This document shows positions 57,001 through 60,000 of a stretch of DNA of 64,000 nt, piece by piece. Positions within the stretch are counted from its first letter, which is position 1. Every line of letters begins with the position of its first letter. The stretch is from NCBI GenBank assembly GCA_025059775.1, contig JANXCW010000002.1, forward strand, positions 62,001-126,000, written 5' to 3'. The position numbers are program-made. Source of the DNA: Armatimonadota bacterium. GTDB lineage: Bacteria; Sysuimicrobiota; Sysuimicrobiia; Sysuimicrobiales; Sysuimicrobiaceae.

Positions 57001-60000
57001 AGGCCGGAGTTCACCATGGTGGCGAACTGCCGGCTCATAAGGGCCAGCTCCCGCAGGCTGATCCCCCGGAGGAGGTCCCACAGGCTACGGGCCTCCCCGG
57101 GGCCCGCCCGCACGGGCTCGATGGCGGTGATGAACAGGCCCATCTCCCGCAGCCGGCTCGCCACTTGCGCTCCGTTCTCCGCCTCCAGGACTCCTTGGAT
57201 CACCCGGCCCATTTGATCCCGAGCCGTGTACTGAAAGACCGCCACCGCCGCACCTCCCTCCTAGCGATGCCCCACGATCATCTTCCGCAGCTCATCGGGT
57301 CGGATGGCCCGGCTGATGGCATCCTCGAACGAGATGAGGCCCCGCTCGTACAGGTCCCGCAGGGATTGGTCCATGGTCTGCATGCCATGCTGGTGTCCCG
57401 TCTGGATGGCCGCGTCGATCTGGTGGGTCTTGCCCTCCCGGATGAGGTTGCGGATGGCGGGGGTGGCGATCATCACCTCCACCGCGGGGACCCGACCTAC
57501 CTCCTCCAGGGTGGGCCACGTCCGCGGCACGGTATGCACCCCGCTCCCCCTCCGGGCCGCCGCGAGCCGCTCCGGACTCCCGTACCGGCGCAGGAACATC
57601 TGGTTGGGCAGGAGCTGCTGGCTGATCACGGCTTCTAGGACATTTGCCAGCTGCACCCGGATCTGCTGTTGTTGGTGAGGGGGGAAGACGTCAACGATCC
57701 GGTCCACGGACTGCGCCGCGGTTCCCGTGTGCAGAGTGGCCAGCACCAAGTGCCCGGTCTCCGCGGCGGTGAGGGCAAGGGCGATGGTCTCCAGATCCCG
57801 CATCTCCCCCACCATGATCACGTTGGGGTCCTCCCGGAGGACGGCCCGCAGGGCGTTCGGGAAGGATTGGGTGTCGAATCCAAGCTCCCGCTGGTTCACG
57901 ATGCTCCGCTTGTGCTCGTGCAGGTACTCGATGGGATCCTCGATGGTGACGATGTGGCAGCTACGCTCCTCGTTGATCCGGTCGATCATCGCTGCCAGGG
58001 TGGTGGACTTCCCCTGGCCCGTGGGACCTGTGACCAGGATGAGCCCCCTGGGCCGGCGGGTGAGCTCCACCAGGACGGGGGGTAGGTTGAGGTCCTCGAT
58101 CCGGGGGATCTGGTGGGGAATCACCCGGATGGCCACCCCCACCGCTCCCCGTTGCCGGTACACGTTGACCCGGAACCGTCCCAACCCGCTCACCCCGTAG
58201 GAGAGGTCCAGCTCCCAGGTCCGCTCGAACTTCTGCTTCTGGAACGCGTTCATCATGCTGTAGGCGAGCTGGTACGTGTCCTCCGGGGTGAGAACGGGGT
58301 AGTGCGCCAGGGGCACCAGCCGTCCCCAGACGCGAAGGGTGGGGGGAACCCCCGCGGTGAGGTGGAGATCTGAAGCCTGGTTGTCCACCGCGTGCCGCAG
58401 CAGCTCGTGGATCTCCATCTCCTTACCTCCCGGATCAGAAAGTGGCCGGCTGAGGCTGCAGGAGCCCTGCCTCTCGCAGCACGTTGTACATCTCCACGAT
58501 TTTGGAGAAGGCTCGGTAGTCGCCCCGGTACTCCTTCTCCAACTTGAAGCCCAGCTCCACGAACCGGTTCAGAGTCACGAAGAAGGCGAACTGCACGATG
58601 TTCACCTCCGCCTCCGGAGCATCCCGGTTCTTGTCGATGAAGAGGTTGAGGATATCGATCTTCGGAAGGGTGTCCGGATCGATCCCCTCCTGTCGCGCCT
58701 TGGATTCCAGGTACTCCCGCAGCTCCCGCGTGGCCTTCCAGTCCTTCACCAGCACCATGGCCACATCCAGATCGTACTCCAGATCCCCGGAGCCCACGCT
58801 GTGGTGCATGGTGGGCCGCTCATAAGGGCTGCTGAGTTCCTCCTCCTCCGCGGGCTTCTCATCGAGCCGGCATCCCTCCTTGTCGAGGGGGGAGATGGCC
58901 ACGATGGGCGCCCGCAGCTCCAGGCTGAGCTCCGCCAGCTGGCTGCTGATGAGGTCCGTGCGGGCCTTGTCGTCTTCGATGGGCTGCGGAAGAGGGATCT
59001 TCTGGAGGTAATCGAGGCAGATGAGAACCTGGTCCGTGCCGTGCTCCTGCATGACGTTGTAGGCGTGGATCTTGATCCGGTCCAGGGTATCCTTCCGGCC
59101 CGCCTCGATGAGGTAGAAGTACGGGGCGTACTGGAAGACGTTCTCCTCTGCTCGTCGTAGAGACGTCAGGAGCGCGGGGGTGCGGTCCAGGTTGCCGCTC
59201 AGGAGATCTGTGGGGTTCACGAGGAGCTCCTTGGCCAGCAAGCGGGCGGCCAGCACCTGGGCCGTCTGCTCCCAGCTGTAGTAGAGGACAGGGATCCGGT
59301 GGTTCCGGGCCACGTAACTGGCCAATTGCAGCACCAGGTTCGTCTTGCCCCGGCGAGGCGCACCCGCCAGTCCGTAGTAGAACCCCGGGCGCAGGCCGGA
59401 CAGCACCTGGTTGAGCCGATCGAAGGGGGAGATGGAGTAGCCCAGAATCCCTACCCGCTGGGGATCCCGCACGCGCTCCACGAGGTCCTGCAACAGCTCG
59501 CTGACGGGCACCAGGCGCTTGCGCAGCCTCCGCTTTTGGAGCTCGAAGAGCTCTGTGATCACCTGCCCCGTGAACTGCAGGACCTCGTGAGTCCCCGCCC
59601 CGGGACTTCGCACGAGGAACTCCTGGATACGCCGTCCTACAGCTTCCAACCGTCTGCGGCTCTCCTGGCTCTTCAGCAGCTCCAGATAGGCCACCAGCTG
59701 GGCCGCGGTGGGGGGACGGGTCTGGGAGAGGGCCTGCACCGCCCTCTCCACCTCCGGGGTGAGCATCCCCCGGTCCTGCAGGTACGCCGTCAGGGTGACC
59801 GCATCCAGCGCCTCCCTACGGGTTAGGGAGAGCTCCAGGAGCGAGCGGGCCAACCGCTGCATCACGGGGTGGCGCAGCAGCTCCGGACTGAACCCTTCGT
59901 TGAGGGCCAGGGTCAGGAGGTGGCGATCCGCCACCATCCCGCTCAGGACAACCAGTTCCGCCGCTTCGAAGTCCATGTTCCCTCCCTCTGGGTCCCCCTG

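Follow-up and report, generated by a model that had tools for sequence, protein, structure and literature searches.

A DnaB-type ATPase apparently tied to the type IV pilus motor module of Sysuimicrobiota

The gene that we call dnaB2 represents a real, conserved and apparently undescribed offshoot of the DnaB helicases that is tied to a type IV pilus motor module. It lies in the 64,000-nucleotide stretch of DNA analyzed here (the window; contig JANXCW010000002.1 of an Armatimonadota bacterium placed by GTDB in the Sysuimicrobiota). Its tie to the pilus is supported at the sequence level by co-loss with pilus motor genes and by promoter motifs common to dnaB2 and pilus genes. For its function we tentatively favor, at somewhat less than an even chance, an ATPase switch on the pilus motor that would resemble FlaH or MglA and work together with a roadblock protein.

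A DnaB-fold gene heads a pilus gene cluster

A first-pass annotation of this DNA had described a 513-aa DnaB paralog with an intact Walker A motif, separate from an intein-bearing dnaB, and both parts of this description stand. The dnaB2 open reading frame translates to 513 aa with GAPRRGKT intact, and a canonical dnaB is found on another contig (C8); its 777-aa product contains an intein-like insert and has its SQLSR and LRESG motifs intact. The same annotation placed dnaB2 inside the pilus motor operon. The gene does head a dnaB2-pilT-pilC cluster (Table 1), but pilB starts 232 nt away, back to back with dnaB2; because pilB is encoded on the plus strand and dnaB2-pilT-pilC on the minus strand, the locus is not one operon. 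The orientation of this upstream pilB differs among the families of the phylum, which we label f1 to f5 (labels that need not equal the family numbers of the earlier annotation): it is divergent in 9/9 f1 and 22/23 f2 loci and co-directional in 7/8 f5 loci.

Occurrence in the phylum came out lower than the 29 of 31 genomes first reported, with dnaB2 present in 72/94 genomes (E <1e-90) and in 43/54 of those of high quality. Adjacency to a PilB ATPase gene, previously put at 22 of 25 loci, was borne out in part: dnaB2 adjoins a PilB or PilT gene in 39 of the 60 phylum loci counted (a 61st, L075, was left out as it has no gene call). A pilus gene lies within five genes of dnaB2 in 40 of these 60 loci, and in none of the 20 loci of f4. 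The insertion in the long PilT was basic in 41/41 parsed cases; set beside the acidic loop of DnaB2 described below, this is only a hint.

Table 1. Features of the dnaB2 locus, in window coordinates
Feature	Positions	Strand	Remarks
PilC platform protein	56028..57245	-	sole copy in the source genome
Long PilT with basic insertion of ~30 aa	57261..58418	-	co-lost with dnaB2
dnaB2, 513-aa full-length DnaB-fold ATPase	58435..59976	-	starts the dnaB2-pilT-pilC cluster; pilT follows after 16 nt
KNR Lys/Arg fingers, equivalents of E. coli K440/R442	58624..58632	-	intact
Altered H4 motif HHSVGSG	58786..58806	-	position of the ssDNA-gripping Arg403 is Val
Acidic insertion, pore-facing loop	58828..58863	-	low model confidence
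Altered H3 motif SPLDKEG	58873..58893	-	Pro at the Gln384 position; Lys at the Arg387 position, within a RadA-like K-E-G
Walker B DYLQ	59002..59013	-	intact
Catalytic Glu motif SWEQ (E236)	59266..59277	-	intact
Walker A GAPRRGKT (K211)	59341..59364	-	intact
Predicted sigma-54 promoter of dnaB2-pilT-pilC	60009..60024	-	in 9/9 f1 loci
Weak SigF/SigB-type site	60059..60083	-	possibly a relic of the f2/f4 promoter; in 1/9 f1 loci
Predicted sigma-54 promoter of divergent pilB	60167..60182	+	
PilB, TPR-linker-MshEN-ATPase, 768 aa, with the TPR at residues ~1-134	60209..62515	+	its presence is the best match to that of dnaB2
Roadblock/LC7 protein, weakly MglB-like	62518..62874	-	co-lost with dnaB2
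SigB/SigF-family sigma factor	62886..63635	-	retained in dnaB2-less lineages
Predicted sigma-54 promoter before sigma/roadblock genes	63693..63708	-	

DnaB2 keeps the ATP site and has altered DNA contacts

DnaB2 matched Pfam DnaB_C (E 4.5e-26) and the replicative helicase family TIGR00665, the latter with 131.8 bits over residues 6-473, which is under the curated cut-off of 385.25. The predicted model (mean pLDDT 80) contains both the N-terminal domain and the RecA-type C-terminal domain of the replicative DnaB fold. Foldseek matched this model to full-length DnaB (E 3e-22), and superposition on 4esv gave a Z-score of 28.3 over 423 residues with an rmsd of 7.0. Walker A, E236, DYLQ and KNR were all invariant among 49 close homologues. 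An ESM Atlas search with DnaB2 returned generic DnaB clusters only, most of them viral.

The residues that hold DNA tell a different story from the ATP site. Contacts to ssDNA described for E. coli DnaB include R403, E404 and G406 (PMC6391071) and R387 (PMC13315258), and Q384 is described as touching the gamma-phosphate (PMC1950529). In DnaB2, the positions of R403, E404 and G406 are occupied by V, G and G, and that of R387 by K. We aligned these motifs in 190 of 191 family sequences, many of them close kin even after removal of exact duplicates, and in 98 of 99 other DnaB-like hits. Position 403 was T, V, M, A or S in 184/190 family members, K in 6/190 and R in 0/190, whereas it was R or K in 98/98 comparators; the family members with Lys include the basal ones. 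The pore loop is longer and more acidic in the family than in DnaB, with a median net charge of -3 versus +1 in comparators and a charge of -2 or lower in 153/190 versus 1/98. Loss of Gln384 is not diagnostic, since this residue is likewise missing from 38/98 comparators, which are of the "KESG" type and have Lys at 403. Judged from these sequences, threading of DNA by DnaB2 is unlikely.

A different mode of DNA contact is suggested by the K-E-G loop. The lysine K366 of this loop is retained in 187/190 family members, and little or no variation is seen at K366, at G368, at the glycines that contact the backbone or in either finger. The equivalent lysine of RadA is described as its primary DNA contact (PMC11612176), so the possibility of DNA binding still counts against a switch on the pilus motor. 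DnaB2 might thus bind or translocate DNA by a RadA-type loop and link the pilus to DNA without ComEC, for instance by tethering the motor to the chromosome or to the pole, or by handling DNA in pilus-linked contact. The kept N-terminal domain and the Lys at 403 of basal members fit such an activity; the non-basic 403 position and the longer, acidic pore loop of the family oppose it, as does the lack of any primase, SSB or recombination gene among the conserved neighbours of dnaB2 at the loci examined. On balance we consider a DNA link of this kind unlikely.

dnaB2 is lost together with pilus motor genes

We counted co-occurrence across 94 genomes, given here as both genes, dnaB2 only, partner only and neither. 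Two unpublished genomes are among those counted, G017 without and G025 with dnaB2, and no conclusion rests on either. Absence of dnaB2 was rechecked by profile in 5 of 22 negatives. The closest match was to the TPR-PilB gene (72/0/2/20; agreement in 92/94 by hand tally), followed by the roadblock gene (67/5/7/15; 82/94; high-quality genomes 42/1/3/8) and the long pilT (64/8/5/17; 81/94; high-quality genomes 41/2/2/9). In f1, f2 and f5, co-occurrence is inflated because the genes are neighbours. As neighbours vanish together in fragmented assemblies, f4, whose dnaB2 is unlinked, offers the fairer test; there, dnaB2 and TPR-PilB were both present in 20/22 genomes and both absent in 1, with 1 discordant case (agreement 21/22).

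Eight high-quality genomes from four genera lack dnaB2, the long pilT, the roadblock gene and the TPR-PilB gene together while keeping a pilC orthologue, and these clean losses perhaps represent about 3-4 independent events. Seven dnaB2-less pilus loci (L091-L097) all contain pilC and none contains the roadblock gene, the long pilT or dnaB2; five of the seven keep the order pilT-pilU-(x)-sigma-merR-pilB-pilC. A long pilT without dnaB2 was found in G059 and G035, which are 81% and 72% complete. Outside the phylum, in a Caldisericota group of 61 genomes, the dnaB2-type gene was present in 30/39 genomes with PilT versus 3/22 without, and ComEC was present in 59/61; these counts take no account of genome completeness and include related genomes that are not independent.

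Predicted promoters group dnaB2 with pilus genes

By our consensus assignments, we take the site upstream of dnaB2 in f1 to be of the sigma-54 type and the motif G(A/T)CTA-N14-16-GGGCAT in f2 and f4 to be of the SigB/SigF type. The predicted sigma-54-type site precedes dnaB2 in 9/9 loci of f1, the family of the source genome, and the predicted SigF-type site does so in 22/23 f2 and 17/18 f4 loci (two f4 loci with too little upstream DNA were left out); the count in f5 was 0/8. Fewer than 0.05 matches were expected from shuffles, although these dnaB2 counts are circular because both patterns were derived from dnaB2 upstream regions.

Matches at pilus genes are independent of that derivation. 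The sigma-54 type precedes 14/2296 genes of the source genome, including pilB, the sigma factor gene and the starts of four pilins or pilin-like genes. In f2, the SigF-type site was found before 10/17 pilins versus 2/140 genes classed as other. In f4 it was found at 4/8 pilus loci and before 0/255 neighbours, and a strict scan of three f4 genomes gave four sites each, one of them always at dnaB2. Remaining SigF-type sites lay at the head of a pilus cluster, at a polysaccharide transferase beyond the pilins, at rho and at genes of unknown function (20/28 sites inspected). Since rho, polysaccharide transferases and unknown genes are preceded as well, the SigF-type regulon is not pilus-only. We also considered DnaB2 as a stand-in for a missing sigma-54 activator and rejected this, as two activators are present.

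The first-pass annotation had raised the concern that synteny may be inertia and that dnaB2 could be a repair helicase. Its DnaB fold and the absence of pilus genes near all 20 f4 loci would be compatible with this, but 17/18 of the unlinked f4 copies still have a promoter of the pilin type, co-loss follows the motor module, and a canonical dnaB is present in the source genome and alongside the family member in 5/5 outside genomes tested. Because co-loss and promoter motifs extend to f4, where the gene is unlinked, synteny is not mere inertia; the proposed link to the type IV pilus was thereby upheld, and we regard a backup or repair helicase parked beside pilus genes as scarcely credible.

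dnaB2 is retained in lineages with no detectable ComEC

The first-pass annotation read dnaB2 as a competence-pilus motor that pulls or processes incoming ssDNA during transformation. Much of what it pointed to is present: we found ComEC, ComEA, DprA and ComM in the source genome, as it had listed, together with a single PilC; ComEC occurs in 35/43 high-quality dnaB2 carriers; and the DnaB-type protein RadA is described as acting in transformation (PMC5512693). Across the phylum, however, ComEC and dnaB2 agreed in only 66/94 genomes (53/19/9/13; high-quality genomes 35/8/4/7). ComEC was undetected in 8/43 high-quality carriers, which belong to two separate lineages, and four high-quality genomes have ComEC without dnaB2. 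Searches found ComEC in 0/23 f5 and 0/3 g17 genomes, with a second model applied to five of them; dnaB2 was intact in 12 ComEC-less f5 genomes and in all three g17 genomes. Two of the carriers (G078 and G067, 96-97% complete) had no detected ComEC, ComEA, DprA or ComM, yet retain pilB-dnaB2-pilB-pilT-pilC, and four others (G080, G072, G065 and G066) retain DprA.

In ComEC-less carriers, the ATPase domain of DnaB2 was as conserved as PilB and PilC (69-86% between members of six pairs), so conservation is not relaxed without ComEC. In the source genome, comEC, comEA, dprA, comM and radA scored at background on the sigma-54 template (7-9), versus 13-15 for dnaB2, pilB and pilins, and RadA and ComM are already present there. 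Retention of dnaB2 without ComEC largely refutes a competence role, and together with the family-wide loss of Arg403 and the absence of the dnaB2 promoter type from the competence genes of the source genome it leaves an ssDNA motor dedicated to competence highly improbable; dnaB2 is probably not a transformation motor.

The family extends to other phyla and other gene contexts

In a maximum-likelihood tree built by a quick method from 72 rows (69 different), the dnaB2 family formed one clade (SH-aLRT 100) apart from the dnaB of the source genome. The term paralog thus holds in that dnaB2 is a second DnaB-fold gene, but it is no duplicate of the resident dnaB and belongs to a separate, old clade. 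The sister clade has no N-terminal domain and a broken Walker A. Among the best 80 of 244 hits, family members were found in Caldisericota, Cryosericum, Acidobacteriota, Desulfomonilaceae, Wallbacteria and Riflebacteria. No member appeared among the best 80 of 135 hits to viral contigs, where the best segment had at most 30% identity; on this basis we rejected the idea that the family arose from phages or mobile elements, and the same result speaks against a DNA-handling role.

Gene contexts outside the phylum are scattered. As the first-pass annotation had observed for Caldisericum, the outside copies are mostly away from pilus genes: 0/31 Caldisericia-type, 0/13 Cryosericum and 0/17 acidobacterial loci lie near any, and pilus genes are missing within 10 kb of most outside loci. 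In one outside lineage (L131, L144 and L147), pilB lies two genes downstream of the dnaB2-type gene. TPR-PilB and roadblock genes were absent from the dnaB2-type loci of outside lineages, the loci being the extent of this comparison. The T2SSE family was present in 25/25 outside genomes but also in 13/14 controls and is hence uninformative. The Cryosericum copy lies two genes from what we take, naming the neighbours from their sequence, to be dnaA-dnaN-recF, a position that would suit a link to DNA.

A fluoride riboswitch precedes 6/17 acidobacterial copies (L166 exceeds the Rfam cut-off, L268 scores 31.2 against a required 34 bits with E 9e-7, and the others were called by pattern). On the basis of Rfam we presume that these copies belong to a fluoride regulon; a literature search on this link returned nothing relevant. 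Copies behind a fluoride riboswitch fit poorly with a pilus-only role, and together with the other outside contexts this argues that the biochemical activity of the family is general and open to redeployment.

These observations also bear on whether DnaB2 contacts the motor at all. It could be a member of a surface or pilus regulon with a job of its own, such as a KaiC-like signalling hub or a stress ATPase, with its clustering in Sysuimicrobiota reflecting co-regulation. The scattered contexts, the fluoride-riboswitch operons, the mixed SigF-type regulon and the outside loci without TPR-PilB or roadblock genes all agree with this. It accounts less well for the loss of dnaB2 together with just three genes, all on the motor side, in lineages that keep the sigma factor and core pilus, or for the tracking of PilT by the dnaB2-type gene in a second phylum, and we judge such an independent job to be fairly unlikely.

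Discussion

Returning to a switch on the pilus motor, we propose that DnaB2 would form a ring and, depending on nucleotide, bind and control the type IV pilus motor rather than move DNA. Ring formation and ATP hydrolysis are suggested by the retained fingers. DnaB2 may dock on the TPR domain of PilB, on PilT or on both, and the roadblock protein may tune its nucleotide state. DnaB2 could thereby take the place of MglA-GTP in a circuit like MglB-MglA-SgmX-PilB of Myxococcus, or that of FlaH beside FlaI. The four-gene module would be an optional control layer, as the core pilus genes (pilT, pilU, pilB, pilC and the sigma factor) persist without it. A small MglA-like GTPase was not found in five genomes searched with PF03029, PF00025 and a motif scan; these are weak negatives, the latter two probes having been added because PF03029 missed the Thermus thermophilus control.

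A fuller version of this proposal, possible but on the doubtful side, would have a replicative-helicase scaffold stripped of its DNA grip become a roadblock-regulated, ring-shaped switch. Docked on TPR-PilB and the modified PilT, this switch would decide between extension and retraction or determine which pole is piliated, and would substitute for the MglA GTPase. Such a protein would be the bacterial equivalent of FlaH, descended from DnaB, in a family that can be redeployed, as in fluoride operons and inactive scaffold copies. If true, type IV pili would have a new kind of accessory regulator, built from a replication helicase, and the PilB TPR domain, the long PilT and the roadblock protein are its candidate partners. 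A further outcome is the definition of an old DnaB offshoot spanning several phyla, whose members databases call "replicative DNA helicase" despite the missing main DNA contact. Our literature search, which had most subscription journals outside its scope, found no paper on a pairing of DnaB with a pilus motor, and the main text of the phylum paper (PMC11604079) contains none of the words "pili", "pilus", "helicase" and "competence", although its supplements may list pilus genes.

Replicative DnaB (SF4; TIGR00665; PDB 4esv, 7t20 and 9dls) has in common with DnaB2 the two-domain fold, Walker A and B, the catalytic Glu and the K-x-R fingers, at ~22-26% identity. DnaB2 differs in its changed R403, E404 and Q384 positions, its acidic and longer pore loop, an extra helical insertion and a C-terminal helix; it falls far under the family cut-off, forms a separate clade and is not essential across the phylum. 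RadA/Sms resembles DnaB2 in its K-E-G loop, its K-N-R fingers and its RecA/DnaB ATPase core, which superposed with Z 21.9 and an rmsd of 2.4 over 205 residues. The C4 zinc finger, KNRFG motif and Lon domain of RadA/Sms were not found in DnaB2 by sequence inspection and Pfam scan; unlike RadA/Sms, DnaB2 has the DnaB N-terminal domain, and the source genome has its own RadA. Mobile-element DnaB-like helicases (SPI-7-type NF040583, phage TIGR03600 and the KESG clade) are also second DnaB copies, and the KESG clade likewise lacks Gln384. DnaB2 falls far under the cut-offs of NF040583 (88.9 versus 655) and TIGR03600 (113.5 versus 498.65) and does not match divDNAB (PF20307); both the mobile-element helicases and divDNAB retain a basic residue at 403, unlike DnaB2.

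The Myxococcus circuit, as outlined in PMC7519303, has in common with the dnaB2 module a roadblock protein, a TPR module, PilB and an NTPase. It differs in that here the TPR is fused to PilB, the NTPase is DnaB-like with no small GTPase found in the five genomes, and the roadblock protein matches MglB weakly (27 bits versus 200). FlaH/ArlH of the archaellum is described as a RecA-fold ring of the KaiC/RecA type that serves as accessory to a motor of the type IV pilus family, associates with the motor ATPase depending on nucleotide and showed no ATP hydrolysis in vitro (PMC5019145). DnaB2 is DnaB-derived and keeps its trans fingers, and binding to the motor is only proposed for it; we put FlaH forward as a working analogy for an ATPase ring that would regulate a pilus motor.

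Apparent promoter switch in the pilus regulon

The pilus regulon of the source family, f1, appears to have switched from the SigF-type promoter found ahead of dnaB2 in families f2 and f4 to a sigma-54 promoter, as judged from predicted sites. The SigF gene of the window carries a predicted sigma-54 site of its own, and the source genome encodes two sigma-54-like genes, each with an activator nearby. Elsewhere, a SigF-type site precedes rho by ~25 nt in two f4 genomes (G039 and G040; loci L293 and L295), and another lies ahead of a response regulator and an RfaH/LoaP-like gene in G001 (L288).

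A second pilT-pilU pair follows a degenerate PilB-like gene in the source genome. Its 508-aa product shares 24% identity with the window PilB, and no counterpart of the ordinary 565-aa PilB that other families carry was detected in the source genome. In the window, dprA and comM adjoin each other and lie ~45 kb from dnaB2. ComEC was not found in family f5 (0/23; G058-G080) or genus g17 (0/3; G036-G038), both of which retain type IV pili.

Sequence features and neighborhoods of DnaB2 homologues

The altered loop of DnaB2 contains a conserved Cys (P0001 residue 369) and a His-His-(Cys/Ser) motif (391-393), which might together make up a metal-binding or redox-active site. Walker A is broken in a sister subfamily (P0149, P0150, P0153, P0154, P0187, and P0230), most members of which lack the N-terminal domain; its C-terminal tail motif is shared with predicted-active Riflebacteria-type copies. 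Two Wallbacteria-type genomes (G104 and G112) carry 2-3 diverged copies.

A gene for a membrane-anchored 420-440-aa protein precedes the homologue in 32 Caldisericota-group loci, and the Cryosericum homologue lies two genes from what we take to be dnaA-dnaN-recF. In one lineage (L131, L144, and L147), the homologue separates accB from accC; pilB lies two genes downstream of it, and a gene for a TPR protein is five genes upstream. In Acidobacteriota, homologues head fluoride-riboswitch operons, with 2 or 3 riboswitches per locus in all six loci scanned; these operons presumably also hold metallophosphoesterase, enolase, a dynamin-like pair, and crcB, as named from sequence.

Coordinates of features in the window, source-genome contigs (C) and homologue loci (L)
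Feature	Position
Predicted sigma-54 sites, dnaB2 and divergent pilB	window 60009-60182
Predicted sigma-54 site, SigF gene	window 63693-63708
dprA-comM	window 10747-13338
Sigma-54-like genes	C1:35177; C11:275996
PilB-like gene and second pilT-pilU	C11:120512-124179
Membrane-anchored protein gene, Caldisericota group	L121:7267-8523
Cryosericum homologue, presumed dnaA-dnaN-recF	L158:4158-11515 and related Cryosericum loci
Acidobacterial fluoride-riboswitch loci	L166:9510-9586; L268:9614-9690; L142; L152; L175; L190
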